56,731 bases of DNA from Patescibacteria group bacterium (GCA_038065695.1 JBBTQN010000020.1:1-56731), one strand, 5' to 3'; numbered from the stretch's first letter, positions 32,215 to 38,830 are shown. Program-made: numbers and translations. Notes: a model not told the origin generated them from the letters alone.

Positions 32215-32769
32215 ATGAAAAAAGTCGTTATTATTCATGGCTGGGGAGCGGATCCAAATAGTGACTGGTTTCCTTGGCTCAAGGGTAAATTGGAAGAGAG
32301 GGGGTTTTCGGTTTTTGTTCCCGCGATGCCCAATACGGATAATCCGAAAATTAAGGAATGGGTGGATTTTTTAAAGGATAATTTGTCCCCACTTGATGAA
32401 GATACATATCTCATCGGGCATAGTATCGGTTGTCAGACAATAATGAGATATTTAGGATCGTTTGAAGAGGCAAAAGTAGTGGGTATTATTTTGGTTGCTC
32501 CTTGGTTTAGCTTAATGAATTTGGAAGAAGGCGAAGAAGAGATAGCAAAACCTTGGCTTGAAACACCCATTGATTTTGAAAAAGTAAAGAGAGCGACCGA
32601 AAATATTATTGCCTTATTTTCCGACAATGATTCGGTAGTGCCGATAGACAATGAGAAAAAAATAAAAGAAGTTCTGGGCGCAAAAACAATAATTTATAAA
32701 AACAAAGGGCATTTCAACGCCGAAGATGGGGTAAAAGAATTACCGGAAATTTTAGAATTCATAAAATAA
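32215..32769 (+). CDS. Small alpha/beta serine hydrolase (YdeN/RBBP9-like)
   Basis: VIIHGWGADPNSDWFPWL and the nucleophile elbow IGHSIGC. 184 aa. Confidence 0.75.
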   Translation: MKKVVIIHGWGADPNSDWFPWLKGKLEERGFSVFVPAMPNTDNPKIKEWVDFLKDNLSPLDEDTYLIGHSIGCQTIMRYLGSFEEAKVVGIILVAPWFSLMNLEEGEEEIAKPWLETPIDFEKVKRATENIIALFSDNDSVVPIDNEKKIKEVLGAKTIIYKNKGHFNAEDGVKELPEILEFIK

Positions 32770-32771
32770 TT

Positions 32772-35700
32772 ATGGATAAGTCAAATCTTATCATCAACAA
32801 GGAAAAAGAAATTCAAAAATTTTGGGAAGAGAATAAAATTTTTGAAAAGACGCTTGAGGCCACCAAAAGCGGCAAAGCTTTTAGTTTTTACGATGGTCCG
32901 CCATTCGCGACCGGCACGCCTCACTATGGACATTTGGTCGCGAGTATCATGAAAGATGTCGTCCCGAGGTACCAGACGATGAAAGGACGCTATGTAGAGC
33001 GCCGCTGGGGCTGGGATTGCCACGGACTCCCGATAGAAAATATCGTAGAAAAAGAATTAGGATTTAAAAGCAAGAAGGATATTGAGGATTTTGGCGTGGA
33101 AAAATTCAACGCCCAGTGCCGATCAAAAGTTTTGATTTATGTGGAAGAATGGAAAAAAACCATTCATCGCTTGGGGCGCTTCGTGGACATGGAAAATGAT
33201 TACAAAACGATGGATTTGGATTTTATGGAAAGCGTTTGGTGGGTGTTTAAACAGCTTTGGGATAAGGGTTTGATTTATGAAGGATACAAATCCATGCACA
33301 TCTGTCCGCGTTGCGAGACGACTTTATCGCAATCAGAGGTGAGTGAGGGCTACCGCGACATCAAGGATTTATCTCTCACGGCAAAATTTGAGCTCGTGGA
33401 CGAGCCCGGCACTTTTATCCTAGCTTGGACGACCACGCCTTGGACGCTTCCCGGCAATGTGGCCTTGGCGGTGGGAGAGAAAATTGATTATGTGATGATT
33501 AAAAAAAAGAATTTGGAAAAAGGCGAAGAAAAAGAAAATTTTATTTTAGCCAAGGAAAAATTTTCCGTTTTACAAGATGATTATGAAATTATAAAGGAAT
33601 TTAAGGGCGAAGAATTGATTGGCAAAAAATACCAGCCGCTTTTTCCATACTATAAAGATAAAGATTTAAAAAATAAAGAAAATTTATATTTGGTGGTCAG
33701 CGCGGATTTCGTGACGACCGAAGACGGCACGGGCGTGGTCCACATCGCGCCGGCTTATGGCGAGGAAGATTTGATGCTGGGCAAAAAAAAAGATTTGGCC
33801 TTCATCCAAAATGTCACTTTAAGCGGTCATTTCACCAATGAAGTGGAGGATTTCAAAGGCCTCCACGTGAAGCCGGCCGGACACACCAAAGAAACCGACA
33901 AAAAAATCATCAAATATTTGAAAGATAATGATTTGCTTTTTGACGAACAGGAATACGAACACAGTTATCCGCATTGCTGGCGGTGCGACACGCCGCTCAT
34001 TAATTACGCGACTTCGTCTTGGTTTGTGAACGTGACGAAAATAAAAGATAAAGCGATAAAATTCGCCAAAGATATTAATTGGTCGCCGGCGCATATCAAA
34101 GAGGGCCGTTTCGGCAAATGGCTGGAGGGCAGCCGCGACTGGTCCATCTCCCGCCAGAGATTTTGGGCTTCAGTCATCCCGATTTGGCGCTGCGAGTGCG
34201 GCGAGAAAAAAGTCATCGGCTCCATTGCCGAATTGGAAAAAGAAAAAATAACCAAAAATAATTTTTTTCTCATCCGCCACGCCGAGTCGGAAAAGAACAT
34301 CCTTGGCATTTTTGATGGCAAGAAAGACAGCGCGTATTCCTTGACGGAGAAGGGCCGAAAACAAGCGGAAGAAGCGGCTAAAAAACTGAAAAAATTAAAG
34401 ATTGATTTGATTATTTCCTCCGAACTCCGGCGCGCCAAAGAAACGGCGGAGATTATCGCGGGAGAATTGGGTTTGGAAGCGCAGTTTGATCCTCGCTTAA
34501 ACGAAGTGTATTTGGGAAAGCGGGAAGGAAAGCCGTATTTAGACGAAGACGGAAAAAGTTTCACCCAAAAATGGAAAATGGAATATGATAAAAGGCTGGA
34601 AGAGGGTGAGAGTGTAAAAGATGTGGAAGAAAGAATGTTGTCCGCTTGGCAAGAACTGGATGAGAAATACGCCGGCAAAAACATTTTATTAGTTTCGCAC
34701 GGTGACACTTTGCGCGCTTTAAAAGGCGTTTTATTAGGACTAAAAAACGGCGAGATTTTCAGCCGCGAGAAAGTATTGGATTTTTGTGAAATTGAAGAAT
34801 TAAAAGAAAAAGTTTTTGACCTTCACAAAGATTTCATTGATAAGATTGAAATTAAATGTCCGAAGTGCGGCCAGTCAATGAAAAGAATCCCCGATGTGAT
34901 TGATTGTTGGTTTGAATCCGGCTCAATGCCTTACGCCCAGCTTCATTATCCGTTTGAGAATAAAGAAAAATTCGAGCATAATTTCCCCGCCGAGTTCATC
35001 GCCGAAGGCGTGGACCAGACGCGGGCTTGGTTTTACTATCTCCATCTCATCGCGACGGCGATAAAAAATAGCCGCGCTTTTGCCAATGTGATCGCCAACG
35101 GCATTGTTCTGGCCGAAGACGGCAGGAAGATGGCGAAAAAACTGAAAAATTATCCGGAGCCGGATTTGGTGATGGAAAAATATGGCGCCGACGCTTTGCG
35201 GTATTATCTTTTATCTTCGCCGGTGATGGCCGCGGAAAATCTTAATTTCTCCGAGTCGGGCGTCAAAGAAGCGTTTCAGAATGTGGTGATGCTCATGGGT
35301 AATATTTTGAAGTTTTATAAGATGTACGAAGATAAATTACAAATTCAAAATTACAAATTACAAATAAATTTAAAATTCAAAATTCAAAATTCAAAATTTA
35401 ATGTTGATAATGTTTTAGACCTTTGGCTTGTCGCCAAGCTGAATTCGCTCATCAAAGAAACGACCAAAGCGATGGAGGCCTATGATTTGCCGCGGGCGAC
35501 CAGGCCGATTGCCGGATTTATCAATGAATTTTCCACTTGGTGGCTTCGCCGCAGCCGCGACCGATTTAAAAACGAGGGCGCGGATAAAGATAATGCCTTG
35601 GCCGTTTTCCGCTACGCGCTTCTCTCGCTTTCAAAAGTGATGGCGCCGTTTATGCCATTTATCGCCGAGCATGTTTATCGTGAAATTGACGGAGAGCTTG

Positions 35701-36248
35701 AATCTGTCCATTTGGAATCGTGGCCCAAAGCGGAAAAGATAGATGAAGATGTTTTAAAACAGATGGAAGAAGTGAGAAAAATCGTGGAGCTGGGACTGGC
35801 CAAGCGCGCCGAGGCGGGGATCAAGATCCGACAGCCACTCGCTACGCTCAAAATTCCAAATTCAAAATTCCAAATTCCAAATAACCAGGAAGAATTTATT
35901 TCTCTTATTAAAGATGAGCTCAACATTAAGGAGATTATCTTCTCTAAAGAAATTGAAGAAATTGAATTAGATTTGAATTTAACCGAAGAATTGAAGGTGG
36001 AAGGCGTGCTTCGCGAATTGGCGCGCTCCATCAACGATTTAAGGAAGAAGCAGGGGTTGACCGTGGGCGATAAAGTGAAAATCCATTGGCACAGCGACGG
36101 CGAACTGATTAAAAAAGTTTTTGCCGACCAGAAATTAGTTGAAGAGTTAAAACGCGCGACTATCGCCGAGGAATTTACCCAACAAAAAAACGATGGCAAG
36201 GAGATCGGGGTGAATGGCGAGAAAATAATTTTATTATTGACAAAATAG
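32772..36248 (+). CDS. ileS: Isoleucine--tRNA ligase (type 2) with an inserted histidine-phosphatase domain and low-complexity inserts
   Basis: HYGH, KMAKKL (KMSKS), WSISRQRFW, WRCECGEKK and CPKCGQSMKR zinc knuckles. The insert carries RHAESEKN ... SSELRRAKETA ... LVSHGDTLRAL. Confidence 0.95.
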   Translation: MDKSNLIINKEKEIQKFWEENKIFEKTLEATKSGKAFSFYDGPPFATGTPHYGHLVASIMKDVVPRYQTMKGRYVERRWGWDCHGLPIENIVEKELGFKSKKDIEDFGVEKFNAQCRSKVLIYVEEWKKTIHRLGRFVDMENDYKTMDLDFMESVWWVFKQLWDKGLIYEGYKSMHICPRCETTLSQSEVSEGYRDIKDLSLTAKFELVDEPGTFILAWTTTPWTLPGNVALAVGEKIDYVMIKKKNLEKGEEKENFILAKEKFSVLQDDYEIIKEFKGEELIGKKYQPLFPYYKDKDLKNKENLYLVVSADFVTTEDGTGVVHIAPAYGEEDLMLGKKKDLAFIQNVTLSGHFTNEVEDFKGLHVKPAGHTKETDKKIIKYLKDNDLLFDEQEYEHSYPHCWRCDTPLINYATSSWFVNVTKIKDKAIKFAKDINWSPAHIKEGRFGKWLEGSRDWSISRQRFWASVIPIWRCECGEKKVIGSIAELEKEKITKNNFFLIRHAESEKNILGIFDGKKDSAYSLTEKGRKQAEEAAKKLKKLKIDLIISSELRRAKETAEIIAGELGLEAQFDPRLNEVYLGKREGKPYLDEDGKSFTQKWKMEYDKRLEEGESVKDVEERMLSAWQELDEKYAGKNILLVSHGDTLRALKGVLLGLKNGEIFSREKVLDFCEIEELKEKVFDLHKDFIDKIEIKCPKCGQSMKRIPDVIDCWFESGSMPYAQLHYPFENKEKFEHNFPAEFIAEGVDQTRAWFYYLHLIATAIKNSRAFANVIANGIVLAEDGRKMAKKLKNYPEPDLVMEKYGADALRYYLLSSPVMAAENLNFSESGVKEAFQNVVMLMGNILKFYKMYEDKLQIQNYKLQINLKFKIQNSKFNVDNVLDLWLVAKLNSLIKETTKAMEAYDLPRATRPIAGFINEFSTWWLRRSRDRFKNEGADKDNALAVFRYALLSLSKVMAPFMPFIAEHVYREIDGELESVHLESWPKAEKIDEDVLKQMEEVRKIVELGLAKRAEAGIKIRQPLATLKIPNSKFQIPNNQEEFISLIKDELNIKEIIFSKEIEEIELDLNLTEELKVEGVLRELARSINDLRKKQGLTVGDKVKIHWHSDGELIKKVFADQKLVEELKRATIAEEFTQQKNDGKEIGVNGEKIILLLTK

Positions 36249-36478: not shown

Positions 36479-37243
36479 ATGAGTAAGAAAAGTGGAAATG
36501 TCCTGTTGAGTCCGGAGCAGAAGTTGGAGTTGGGTCTGGCGATGACTAAGGCGATACCTTGGGATATGTCCCCGGAATTGGCTCAGAAGTGTATTGGCAG
36601 TCGCTTTCTCAAAAGCGGCGTGCGGCAATTACTGATGCCATCAGAACCGGAAAGATCGATGGCAGTACTGGATGCCGACAGTGTCGTCGGTCAATTCGCC
36701 GAGGAGTGGGAGCGGCTCTACCGCGACAAGTTCGGCCTAACCGCTGACTTCTCGCAAGTTCGGGTGCCGGTTGTGCCCACAAATTTCAGCGGGTTCAACT
36801 GGCTGATGTTTGTAGCCAAGGGATTGACTCCCAACGCCGTGTACGCGGTTTGCGAGTCAATGTTTCCTTGCTACCGATACATATCGGATTTGGACGCGGC
36901 GGTGAAGGGCAGGAACGACCGCGAGCCGATCGAGCATTATGCCGTCTGGCTTCGCGACCGCGCGGAACCTGACGAAGAACTAAAAAAACTCTCGGCCAAT
37001 CAACTGGCGGCCTATGGCGTAGCAGGCAACACCTTATTGGAGGCGTTGCTTCTGGAGCCGTGGTATTTCTCCCGTTCCAAGGGCCAGCACCTCAATGTGG
37101 CCAATTGGAATTTGTGTAGTGGTTCGCGTTGCTCTGATGGCAGGGTCCCGCACGTCGGCTGGCGCGACGGCAAGTTTCGGGTTTATTGTTGCAGCTCTGA
37201 CGGTGCCAACGGCAATTTGCGGGCTCGCCTCGCAGTTTCCTAA
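36479..37243 (+). CDS. DGR target (variable) protein
   Basis: No signal peptide. The C-terminal 41 codons constitute the VR (SGSRCSDGRVPHVGWRDGKFRVYCCSSDGANGNLRARLAVS). Confidence 0.8.
   Translation: MSKKSGNVLLSPEQKLELGLAMTKAIPWDMSPELAQKCIGSRFLKSGVRQLLMPSEPERSMAVLDADSVVGQFAEEWERLYRDKFGLTADFSQVRVPVVPTNFSGFNWLMFVAKGLTPNAVYAVCESMFPCYRYISDLDAAVKGRNDREPIEHYAVWLRDRAEPDEELKKLSANQLAAYGVAGNTLLEALLLEPWYFSRSKGQHLNVANWNLCSGSRCSDGRVPHVGWRDGKFRVYCCSSDGANGNLRARLAVS
37118..37240 (+). repeat. DGR variable repeat (VR)
   Basis: 123 bp, colinear with the TR. My alignment gives 18 mismatches, 17 of them opposite TR adenines. Confidence 0.85.
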
Positions 37244-37525
37244 CCCTTCGTTCCCTTTTTAACTTTAACCCTAAACCACAGTGCTGTGTTGATTTTTCAA
37301 TATGGCACTTTTCTTTTATAATAAAATAAGGTTAATATAATCAGTCCTGCCCTTCGCGAAGGGTAGGACAATGGTTTACCTTTAAATTTAGGAAACTGCT
37401 TATCCAATTCTGGCGGACAGCTATTTTTTAAAATAGTCAGTCCCAAACAGAGCCGGCTAAGAGCCGGAAAACCCAGGCGATTTTATATAAAATTGCCGGT
37501 GCGAATGATGGAATTGGATGATATA

Positions 37526-37648
37526 AGTGGTTCGCGTTACTCTGATGGCAATGTCCCGAACGTCAACTGGAACGACGACAAGTTTCAGGTTAATTGTAAC
37601 AACTCTGACAATGCCAACGACAATTTGCGGGCTCGCCTCGAAGTTTCC
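37526..37648 (+). repeat. DGR template repeat (TR)
   Basis: Adenine-rich (AAC/AAT codons) at exactly the positions that vary in the VR. The 3' GC-rich segment gcgggctcgcctcg is shared with the VR. Confidence 0.85.
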
Positions 37649-37661
37649 GGCAGAGAAAGTC

Positions 37662-38018
37662 CTATTTCGGACTTTCTTTTGCTATCCAATTGAGCCAATC
37701 AGTATTCATTTTGGAAATTTCAATCAGCCGGCCCTCAAGGCCAAGATAATTTTTTCCATTTATAATATTTGATTCATTGGCTAGCCGTACTAATTGTTTT
37801 AGCACCTCAATTTTTATGCGCAAAATTTTTAAATGATCTGACTTTTCGTTTTTCGGCAAATAGGCGGCAGTGATTGATAGCTCCAGCGATTCCAGACACA
37901 TATTTTCTATCTTTAAGCCAAGACTGAAACGATCCCTCTTGTTTATTTGCTTATTATTTTGATAAATTAGTTTATAAAAATCAGTTATCTTATGAATCAG
38001 AGGAATATTATTAGACAT
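37662..38018 (-). CDS. Four-helix-bundle protein, Avd-like DGR accessory candidate
   Basis: 118 aa, helical, resembling the S23-ribosomal/four-helix-bundle family. It lies between the TR and RT but on the opposite strand. Its 5' end overlaps the RT start by 27 nt. Confidence 0.65.
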   Translation of the reverse strand: MSNNIPLIHKITDFYKLIYQNNKQINKRDRFSLGLKIENMCLESLELSITAAYLPKNEKSDHLKILRIKIEVLKQLVRLANESNIINGKNYLGLEGRLIEISKMNTDWLNWIAKESPK

Positions 38019-38830
38019 AATTTTAAAGATATTATTTCTTTAGAAAACTTATTTTTATGTTGGAAAGAATTTAGAAAAGGCAAAAGGGAAAAGTTGGATG
38101 TCCAAGAATTTGAATTCAATTTAGAGGATGATATTTTTCAGCTTCATTTTGAGTTATCCAACCAATCCTATCACCACGGCCTTTATCACACCTTTAATAT
38201 CTGTGATCCCAAGCCCAGAAAGATTTCCAAGGCATCAGTCAGGGACAGATTAGTTCATCACCTTATCTCCAATGAACTTTATCATATTTTTGAGCCAAGT
38301 TTTATTTACCACTCATATTCATCTCGTAAGGATAAAGGCACCCATCTGGCAGTTCTGAATTTAGAGAAGGCCCTAAGAAAAGTCAGCCGAAATTATCGCC
38401 AATCAGCTTTTGTCCTCAAGTGCGACATTAAGAAGTTTTTTGCCAGCGTGCCTCACCAGAAACTATTTGAGATAATAAAAAGAAAAATCAAGGATGAAAA
38501 ATTCCTTTGGCTGATTGAGGAAATTATAGAGAGTTTCGCTTAAAAATCCATCCTGATAAAATTATCATTATAAAATTCAGGCAAGGCGTTGATTTTCTGG
38601 GTTATGTCGTCTTGCCGCGTTATAAAACACTGCGGACGAAGACCAAAAGGAGAATGTTTAAAAAATTGTTTGTCAAGAGCAAGTCGGTAAAAAATGGAGA
38701 ACTAAATGAAGAGCGATTCAGGCAAACAATCCAATCGTATTTAGGTTTGTTAAAACATTGTCGAGGATATAAAATTCAGGAAAAGATAAGAGAATTGGTA
38801 GTCATTGAAAAAAAACCGATAAAAGATTAA
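37992..38830 (+). pseudogene. DGR-type reverse transcriptase with an internal deletion and frameshift (catalytic core missing)
   Basis: The N-terminal part has DGR-RT-like motifs (NLFLCWKEFRKGKREK, ICDPKPRKISKASVRDRLVHH, YSSRKDKGTHLA, VLKCDIKKFFASV) and stops at 38543. The -1 frame continues with LKIHPDKIIIIKFRQGVDFLGYVV... No xGxxxSQ or YxDD segment occurs in any frame. Confidence 0.7.

Follow-up and report, generated by a model that had tools for sequence, protein, structure and literature searches.

The closest described counterparts of the gene considered here are type-2 (eukaryote/archaeal-like) isoleucyl-tRNA synthetases (IleRSs) of known structure, including Priestia megaterium IleRS2 (8C8V) and the enzymes of Thermus thermophilus (1ILE) and yeast (7D5C/8WND). 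The gene is the ileS of a Patescibacteria group bacterium, lies in a stretch of 56,731 nucleotides (GCA_038065695.1 JBBTQN010000020.1:1-56731; hereafter the window, meaning the whole stretch), and carries a histidine-phosphatase domain within its coding sequence. Its product has all of the domains of the solved type-2 enzymes as well as a zinc-knuckle Cys pattern in the CP3 subdomain like that reported for T. thermophilus, but none of these structures has anything at the position of the insert, where the 5-residue linker of the yeast enzyme compares with 186 residues in the window protein. The CP3 subdomain of yeast IleRS comprises residues 459-526, and the CP2-3 linker ahead of it (residues 453-465) forms the lining of the pocket that takes up the tRNA CCA end and reveromycin A (PMC7955072). 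CP3 is structurally variable among IleRSs, and that of T. thermophilus binds zinc (PMC7191050).

With respect to the guest domain, the nearest described proteins are broad-specificity branch-1 histidine phosphatases, namely PhoE (1H2E/1EBB), the alpha-ribazole phosphatase CobC (6E4B), GpmB, PspA and the short 2,3-bisphosphoglycerate-dependent phosphoglycerate mutase (dPGM) of Schizosaccharomyces pombe (1FZT). These resemble the insert in predicted fold, catalytic residues and size (~170-210 aa), but unlike the insert they are not nested in another enzyme.

Several known proteins combine a synthetase, or a nucleotide enzyme, with a further catalytic domain. The CP1 editing domain of IleRS, valyl-tRNA synthetase (ValRS) and leucyl-tRNA synthetase (LeuRS), along with LysX (a fusion of lysyl-tRNA synthetase, LysRS, and MprF), provides the case of a synthetase with a second hydrolytic or transferase domain, nested or fused, that acts on the products of the synthetase. 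CP1 is universal and acts on aminoacyl esters, whereas the guest in the window is a phosphatase and lineage-restricted. A curated precedent for an IleRS with an extra enzymatic domain is NF040702 (isoleucine--tRNA ligase, N-acetyltransferase domain-containing), which differs from the window protein in lineage and in the domain concerned; membership was rejected, as the window protein scores 300.3 bits against a cut-off of 1999 and contains no GNAT domain, and three related IleRSs (P0179, P0257 and P0352) score 241-300 bits. Membership in the MupA/MupB families (NF000257/NF000258) was likewise rejected at 745.8 and 718.3 bits against a cut-off of 1900. Branch-1 His_Phos domains are also joined to nucleotide or RNA enzymes in MutT1 (Nudix and His_Phos) and RnhC/Rv2228c (RNase H and a CobC-like acid phosphatase); these are end-to-end fusions, whereas the window protein has a nested insertion, and both family cut-offs are missed (NF005567, RNase H/acid phosphatase: 87 bits, below its cut-off).

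In the literature searched we found no description of a phosphatase nested in IleRS, ValRS or any other aminoacyl-tRNA synthetase, in agreement with an earlier, sequence-based reading of this DNA (the initial annotation), which knew of no such module in the catalytic body of a synthetase. The insert is not mentioned in the AARS Online paper and its domain-superfamily table, or in a 2026 preprint annotating 96,219 IleRS sequences. What is unusual is the position of the domain, its conservation, the convergence between IleRS and ValRS, and the apparent absence from the literature, while a domain fusion as such is ordinary. Some of the best-studied enzymes would thereby gain a second nested catalytic domain besides CP1, the textbook case. 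If the target of the phosphatase is a product, an inhibitor or the tRNA end, quality control or self-protection linked to a synthetase would take a new form here, in epibionts that live on antibiotic-producing hosts. There is also a consequence for genome annotation: most insert-bearing proteins are named 'class I tRNA ligase family protein' or 'histidine phosphatase family protein, partial' by NCBI and their insert-less relatives 'isoleucine--tRNA ligase', so that metabolic reconstructions of candidate-phyla-radiation (CPR) genomes may list IleRS or ValRS as absent while crediting the organism with a phosphatase or 'PGM'.

The host synthetase and the borders of the insert

The window protein scores 886.8 bits against the ileS equivalog TIGR00392 of NCBIfam (cut-off 621.4), and the match falls into two stretches on either side of the insert. 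Pfam assigns tRNA-synt_1 to aa 14-497 (profile positions 2-272) and to a second stretch, Anticodon_1 to aa 883-1023 and DUF5915 to the C-terminus, and the type-2 signatures are all present, namely HIGH, KMSKS, the CP1 editing motif, and the anticodon-binding and type-2 C-terminal domains (Table 1). In an alignment of 69 IleRSs, H51 and G53 of the HIGH signature are invariant, and Y52 and H54 are at least 90% conserved; the same alignment shows W219, T220, T221, P223 and W224 of WTTTPWT, which we take to be the editing motif of the IleRS literature, as invariant and T222 and T225 as at least 90% conserved. An AlphaFold2 (AF2) model of the full protein, built from the 69-sequence alignment, reached a mean predicted local distance difference test (pLDDT) score of 87.1 and a predicted TM-score of 0.79. 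When the whole model was compared with known structures using Foldseek, the matches were synthetases only, including IleRS2 8C8V (TMt 0.83) and 1ILE (TMt 0.88).

The order argS - response regulator - ferredoxin - ileS is the same in the window as in L087, a relative that lacks the insert (identity 75% in the N-terminal and 62% in the C-terminal part), and on account of this common synteny the window gene appears to be the ortholog of ordinary ileS rather than an extra paralog. A second ileS was not found within the 56.7-kb window, and we infer that the window protein is the sole IleRS of its genome and its guest the sole His_Phos domain.

The domain within this protein matches His_Phos_1 (PF00300) over profile positions 2-168 of 194, with 150.6 bits against a gathering cut-off of 21.7 (E = 5.7e-44), which bears out the earlier report of a complete histidine-phosphatase domain inside IleRS. 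The coordinates given there (34243-34815) come within 11 nt of the borders in Table 1 but start one base out of frame, the frame itself starting at 34242. In alignment with yeast IleRS (8wnd), query residues 10-490 match chain residues 13-490 and query residues 680-1067 match chain residues 496-893. According to this structure-sequence alignment ~189 residues stand where yeast IleRS has its 5-residue linker, and the linker at this point is otherwise 5-8 residues long, in line with the short linker that the initial annotation gave for type-2 enzymes. Relative to its closest insert-less relatives (P0297, P0303, P0305 and P0300) the window gene shows a clean in-frame indel (...LEK-EKIT-[K495...F680]-DLHKD), and the host gene is otherwise intact, again as first described.

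Several observations bear on whether this architecture could be an artefact, that is, a chimeric assembly, a frameshift, or an intein-like element removed post-translationally. The GC content of the insert (0.42-0.46) is similar to that of its flanks, the composition of the window is uniform along its length, and the identical 1158-aa protein (P0286) occurs on six contigs, the longest of 95.5 kb. When the segment that spans both junctions (aa 461-721) was searched exhaustively with HMMER against 1.84 billion representative proteins, 149 clusters (at 50% identity) reached E <= 1e-30. Of the 150 clusters listed, almost every one is a long protein that matches the whole junction query in one stretch. 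Motif mapping in these homologues gave the order SRQRxW, His_Phos, DxWFxSG, and 154 of the 235 proteins with a His_Phos match in the set analysed at that stage also have an IleRS motif. With the six identical contig copies, the more than 150 homologous clusters and the uniform composition, chimeric assembly and frameshift were ruled out; the initial annotation had itself raised the possibility of a chimera. An intein-like element was rejected on two counts. Specifically, the Pfam scan of the protein gave no intein or Hint family match, and splice-type residues are missing from the ends, as the insert begins KNNFF and finishes KEKVF ahead of DLHKD, with no Cys, Ser or Thr opening it and no His-Asn closing it, consistent with the earlier observation on its termini. 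The AF2 model has pLDDT values of 85-96 over the insert (aa 491-680) and both junctions, shows strands alternating with helices, and places about five residues between the CP3 helix (aa 485-491) and the first phosphatase strand (aa 497-502). Nothing was found that favours an artefact, and we regard the chance of one as negligible. The analysis confirms, at the level of sequence, that the intact-looking phosphatase domain in IleRS is real, and we hold the architecture, together with the integrity of the catalytic residues, to be highly probable.

The one irregular relative is a homologous insert-bearing ileS on a 733-kb contig (L002:4337-7857), which is broken into four consecutive open reading frames (489, 195, 113 and 186 aa). 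It may reflect assembly indel errors or a pseudogene, and the argS-ileS synteny is retained.

In terms of position, the insert falls midway through CP3, at a point between residues 490 and 496 of the yeast enzyme, and is flanked on each side by one Cys pair of the zinc knuckle in CP3. C474 and C476 of the first pair are invariant in the 69 IleRSs, with or without an insert. The guest domain thus occupies the loop between the two halves of the zinc knuckle, whose ends are naturally near each other.

Catalytic residues and family assignment

The motifs listed in the initial annotation (RHAESEKN, SSELRRAKETA, LNEVYLGKREG, GESVKDVEERM and LVSHGDTLRAL in the insert, HYGH and KMAKK in the host) were all found in the translation. 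Residue conservation was assessed in 247 embedded domains aligned to a family hidden Markov model (HMM). R502 and H503 of the RHG motif, the latter being the predicted phospho-accepting nucleophile, are kept in all 243 domains that cover the position, with RHA in place of RHG in 18, and the earlier statement that the catalytic residues are intact holds for R502, H503, R554, E613 and H643, which are kept in 243-247 of the 247. Moreover, L524, T525, G528, S550, A559 and E578, which are structural residues, are more than 90% conserved among the embedded domains. Because the catalytic residues are near-invariant while the embedded domains are only ~30-50% identical overall, the catalytic machinery must be under strong purifying selection.

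By sequence, the PDB entries that match best are 1FZT, the short S. pombe dPGM (E = 3e-21), and PhoE 1EBB/1H2E (E = 2e-19), followed by CobC (6E4B and 6NRU), the phosphoserine phosphatase 4IJ5, and 9MMH, with E values over the whole set ranging from 3e-21 to 1e-13; the alignments with the structures 1FZT and 1H2E run from one end of the insert to the other. The more specific assignments tried were phosphoglycerate mutase, CobC, PspA and SixA, and all were rejected on their cut-offs: dPGM TIGR01258 gave 55.8 bits against 81.7 and archaeal dPGM NF038349 110 against 225, CobC TIGR03162 108.9-113.9 against 162.9, PspA 83.6 against 350 and SixA 40 against 74.5, with GpmB at 85 against 261. In addition, the dPGM positions NERYYG and WRRSYD of 1FZT read NEVYLG and WKMEYD in the insert, which replaces the mutase arginines that bind phosphoglycerate in dPGM structures. 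The residue after the conserved Glu is I, V or L in embedded domains generally, and this hydrophobic residue sets the IleRS-linked subfamily apart from the stand-alone set, about half of which has Arg here. The earlier label 'phosphoglycerate-mutase-like' is accordingly apt for the predicted fold but not for a mutase. From the profile scores and these alignments, we conclude that the insert is a generic branch-1 histidine phosphatase of the PhoE/CobC/GpmB-like type rather than a mutase.

Table 1. Coordinates of ileS, its insert and other features of the window (positions counted from the first nucleotide of the window)
Feature	Position	Strand	Basis or remarks
ileS, type-2 isoleucyl-tRNA synthetase, insertion host	32772..36248	+	Open reading frame, 1158 aa; TIGR00392, AF2, Foldseek
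HIGH signature, HYGH, aa 51-54	32922..32933	+	Sequence reading
CP1 editing-site motif WTTTPWT, aa 219-225, intact	33426..33446	+	Sequence reading
First Cys pair of CP3 zinc knuckle, C474-E-C476-G	34191..34202	+	Conservation; zinc motif in T. thermophilus CP3
Inserted histidine-phosphatase domain with short linkers, 186 aa, aa 495-680	34254..34811	+	Pfam, clean indel, AF2
Pfam His_Phos_1 match, aa 499-664	34266-34763	+	E = 5.7e-44
R502-H503 of RHG motif (here RHA); H503 predicted nucleophile	34275..34280	+	Conservation
R554, second phosphate-pocket arginine	34431..34433	+	Kept in 246/247 embedded domains
E613, predicted proton donor, GES motif	34608..34610	+	Kept in 244/247 embedded domains
R621, further near-invariant arginine	34632..34634	+	Kept in 245/247 embedded domains
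H643, second catalytic histidine, SHG motif	34698..34700	+	Kept in 247/247 embedded domains
Second Cys pair of CP3 zinc knuckle, C696-P-K-C699	34857..34868	+	At least 90% conserved (69 IleRSs)
DCWFESG block, opens second half of Rossmann fold	34902..34922	+	Sequence reading and alignment
KMSKS signature, KMAKK, aa 786-790	35127..35141	+	Sequence reading
Serine hydrolase gene PF06821, ends 2 nt before ileS ATG	32215..32769	+	Pfam E = 1.9e-26; gene layout
Target gene of diversity-generating retroelement	36479-37243		254 aa, no Pfam match, 56% GC vs ~42% background
Variable region within target gene	37118-37240		
Template repeat	37526-37648		85% identical to variable region; nearly all mismatches at template adenines
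bAvd-like gene	37662-38018	-	
Short reverse-transcriptase open reading frame	37992-38543		183 aa, partial RVT_1
FadL/TodX-type outer-membrane transport protein, PF03349	7784-8980	-	E = 6e-46

Distribution and association with synthetases

The nearest full-length relatives of the window protein (60-64% identity) have the insert and belong to Patescibacteria, for example Candidatus Buchananbacteria. Among the matches listed for GTDB species representatives, the embedded form occurs in Paceibacterota, Jorgensenbacteria, Giovannonibacteria, Yanofskybacteria, Minisyncoccia, Saccharibacteria and Peribacteria/Peregrinibacteria. The survey of IleRS orthologs proposed in the initial annotation thus reveals the same insertion throughout a large, old family of Patescibacteria, and in ValRS as well; insertions at the window's site carry the phosphatase motifs, contrary to the suggestion that insertions of similar length lacking them might be normal here.

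With the guest masked, the nearest relative with the insert (P0289) and the nearest one without it (P0297) are equally close to the window protein, with core identities of 73.5% and 73.3%, respectively. The guest domains evolve faster than the host core, inserts averaging 52% identity at 70-80% core identity, and insert identity follows core identity with a Spearman coefficient of 0.40 over 8001 pairs. Discordant pairs are also found, such as the window protein and P0289 (core 73.5%, insert 36%) set beside the window protein and P0287 (core 69%, insert 52%). The picture suggested by these comparisons is one of an old insertion with mostly vertical inheritance, repeated precise loss and some replacement.

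Insertion sites were mapped pairwise onto an insert-less reference after masking of the guest domains. The site found in the window (site A) accounts for 215 His_Phos domains, and three further sites were identified in IleRS: A2, within the second Cys knuckle (10 domains, mostly mutual nearest matches and mostly a second copy beside site A), site B, which follows an 18-residue segment (11 domains), and site C, directly ahead of the anticodon-binding domain (11 domains). At least six two-copy loci, all from Peribacteria or Peregrinibacteria, are present among the GTDB matches listed, and one partial IleRS protein holds as many as four His_Phos domains; tandem copies each retain the catalytic residues. 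Recent intragenic duplication was rejected as the source of the A2, B and C domains, as they are only 35-45% identical to any other copy and those at A2 form their own clade. In the window protein, a low-complexity stretch, KLQIQNYKLQINLKFKIQNSKF (IleRS aa 855-876, window 35334-35399), lies in the loop preceding the anticodon-binding domain, which on our reading would be site C. The AF2 pLDDT drops below 50 only at residues 866-877 and 1-3 of the protein.

The domain is also embedded in ValRS. In at least eight GTDB species it is flanked by a synthetase only 23-29% identical to the window IleRS, and the four ValRSs that were scanned pass the valS equivalog NF004349 (740-928 bits, cut-off 704). 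In three loci (L020, L025 and L030) the domain sits between the CP3 Cys pairs of ValRS (...WYCLSCN-[His_Phos]-CMKCGG...DTLDTWFSSG), a position homologous to IleRS site A, whereas the fourth, a ValRS from Dojkabacteria (L037), has it immediately upstream of its DTWFSSG block and shows no Cys pairs in the stretches inspected on either side. A word-index protein search with the ValRS junction gave, among the matches listed, the ValRS-embedded fragments P0406-P0408, P0412 and P0428. The ValRS guests form their own clade, with 45-56% mutual identity versus ~40% to the IleRS guests. This separate clade and the differing residue after the conserved Glu rule out a single origin for the IleRS and ValRS inserts.

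A second type of association was seen in the gene neighbourhoods of a small sample of 10 close stand-alone homologues, 7 of which lie upstream of an insert-less ileS. Five of these are on the same strand within ~0.55 kb or less (P0010/L083-L084 with a 132-nt gap, P0012/L088 with a 2-nt gap, L022, L028 and L029), two are 2.4-2.5 kb upstream (L032 and L091), and the remaining three homologues are found elsewhere (L085, which adjoins smpB, L046 and L092). No ileS was found near stand-alone homologues from Firmicutes, cyanobacteria and archaea in the loci examined. Since an internal insertion cannot arise through read-through from a neighbouring gene, adjacency to ileS, nesting at four sites of IleRS and nesting in ValRS represent independent events, each joining these two functions.

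His_Phos is not the only guest in these synthetases. One IleRS (P0352) combines NUDIX and His_Phos with a C-terminal rhodanese and another (P0353) NUDIX with His_Phos, GNAT and His_Phos occur together in P0257 and P0179, and the Dojkabacteria ValRS (L037:1607-5431) contains HAD, a PF06821 Ser_hydrolase domain (aa 629-770) and His_Phos (aa 817-1000). A PF06821 serine hydrolase is also encoded immediately upstream of ileS in the window, and its product in tblastn comparisons is 27% identical to L037 and 57% identical to L046, the latter at a distance of 2.2 kb from a His_Phos gene that stands alone. Given that the L037 ValRS has a member of this family nested beside its His_Phos, the hydrolase is a possible functional partner. 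Away from synthetases, the gene of a NAT_N/GNAT_C acyltransferase runs into the start of a His_Phos gene (L089:4201-5531), and the two are fused in P0058, which suggests a GNAT-phosphatase partnership that is independent of IleRS.

Possible functions and other features of the window

Our preferred reading, to which we assign a probability of roughly 50%, is that the window gene encodes a bifunctional enzyme in which an ordinary type-2 IleRS and a competent-looking phosphatase nested in its CP3 work together. As CP3 begins with the CP2-3 linker, part of the lining of the tRNA CCA pocket, the phosphatase would be held at the edge of the synthetic site. Its linkers are very short, and the model predicts rigid docking. 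With respect to catalytic mechanism, the standard chemistry of the superfamily predicts that R502, R554 and H643 hold the phosphate for attack by H503, that E613 protonates the leaving group, and that the phospho-histidine is then hydrolysed. We infer that the phosphatase is catalytically active, and consider it probable that the domain is functionally coupled to IleRS and ValRS rather than a random passenger.

The nature of the substrate can be suggested only tentatively. The specific reading that we find most likely, although it is open to considerable doubt, is a phosphorylated nucleotide-type small molecule made at, or aimed at, the synthetic site, candidates being nucleotide by-products (AMP, ADP or Ap4A-derived products), or an aminoacyl-adenylate-like compound or inhibitor. 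This suggestion fits the accompanying modules (NUDIX, GNAT, PF06821 and HAD): NUDIX enzymes cleave nucleoside-diphosphate derivatives, HAD enzymes are phosphatases, aminoacyl-nucleotide antibiotics are acetylated by MccE/RimL-type GNATs, and RBBP9, which belongs to PF06821, hydrolyses the amino-acid ester of a nucleoside analogue. The substrates put forward in the initial annotation (a nucleotide, an aminoacyl-adenylate or an alarmone) are speculative, and the present evidence speaks neither for nor against them. A broader and more speculative proposal, unlikely on present evidence, is that the IleRS and ValRS of Patescibacteria are platforms for cis-acting accessory modules, most often a histidine phosphatase but also NUDIX, HAD, PF06821 serine hydrolase, GNAT and rhodanese, and perform an unrecognised synthetase-linked chemistry beyond CP1 editing. 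Such platforms might serve for the on-enzyme destruction or salvage of compounds resembling aminoacyl-nucleotides, for instance released non-cognate adenylates, adenylate-mimicking antibiotics from host bacteria, or Ap4A-type by-products, or alternatively for healing damaged tRNA 3' ends ahead of charging.

Several findings weigh against a bifunctional enzyme. The close insert-less relatives (73% core identity, same locus) evidently work without the domain, and a rough neighbour-joining tree of 196 cores, which is distance-based, approximate and drawn from a biased sample, needs at least 13 changes between presence and absence, with 'present' at the root. Taken together, these two observations fit a domain that is dispensable or replaceable in trans, which is also compatible with a passenger role. 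No genome among the GTDB matches listed has more than one IleRS- or ValRS-linked copy, which fits a single housekeeping enzyme lodged anywhere. Furthermore, no specific NCBIfam equivalog for a phosphatase or mutase reaches its curated cut-off, and chemistry directed at tRNA or at CoA/thioesters would account just as well for the other inserted module types.

Much of this evidence could be accommodated if the insert were a passenger housekeeping enzyme, either a broad-specificity phosphatase or the cell's phosphoglycerate mutase, that resides at permissive loops with no mechanistic link to aminoacylation, small genomes expressing the domain within or beside a highly expressed essential gene. 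The strongest argument for such a passenger is the number of close relatives without the insert, whose cores are equally conserved, along with the gains and losses counted above, and the structural variability of CP3 among IleRSs (PMC7191050), the generic character of the other guests (NUDIX, GNAT, HAD, alpha/beta hydrolase and rhodanese, all small enzymes), the single linked copy per genome among the GTDB matches listed, and the short dPGM 1FZT as best PDB match all point the same way. We nonetheless consider a passenger unlikely, although it deserves to be taken seriously. The domain has been captured at four sites in IleRS and independently at the homologous site in ValRS, in genomes whose ileS has no insert it is encoded directly upstream of that gene, and nesting is not producible by read-through fusion, which makes these two kinds of linkage independent. 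Up to four tandem copies, each with its catalytic residues, are also difficult to reconcile with a passenger, and a mutase in particular is disfavoured by the missed dPGM cut-offs and by the reading of RYY and WRRSYD as VYL and WKMEYD.

Alternatively, the phosphatase could be directed at a macromolecule that encounters the synthetase, namely a tRNA end bearing a 3'-phosphate or 2',3'-cyclic phosphate and in need of healing ahead of charging, a phosphorylated synthetase, or a phospho-histidine signalling protein. HipA-type toxin kinases inactivate aminoacyl-tRNA synthetases, and the HAD, NUDIX, GNAT and rhodanese families all include RNA- or tRNA-directed members, which would suit a macromolecular target. 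The beginning of CP3 at the linker lining the tRNA CCA pocket (PMC7955072) is consistent with such a role, as is the precedent of mycobacterial MutT1, whose His_Phos domain is reported to dephosphorylate sensor histidine kinases (PMC12407098). In the window, L087 and L088, ileS has orphan response-regulator genes upstream of it, but the response regulator is present in synteny regardless of the insert, the SixA score (40 bits) falls far short of its cut-off (74.5), and there is no sign of synthetase-directed kinases nearby. Moreover, His_Phos enzymes are not known to act on RNA ends, and on balance we judge a macromolecular substrate improbable.

A regulatory sensor, in which binding of a phosphometabolite, or transient phosphorylation of the domain by one, gates tRNA 3'-end entry or adenylate formation via CP3 and so ties translation to energy status, seems to us more improbable still. 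The short linkers and the high AF2 confidence over the junctions suggest rigid coupling in the model, the domain is placed beside the CCA-pocket linker, and a sensor based on a phospho-enzyme would likewise conserve the catalytic residues. Stand-alone homologues beside insert-less ileS, however, argue for an enzyme that acts in trans, and the three other, distant insertion sites of IleRS are hard to fit to one allosteric path.

Two further features of the window are listed in Table 1. A diversity-generating retroelement lies directly downstream of ileS (window 36479-38543) and comprises a target gene with its variable region, a template repeat, a bAvd-like gene and a short reverse-transcriptase reading frame. 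The window also encodes a FadL/TodX-type transport protein of the outer membrane, although the IleRS and the gene order of this contig indicate Patescibacteria, a group generally considered to lack an outer membrane; the composition of the window is uniform, and a chimera is not indicated.

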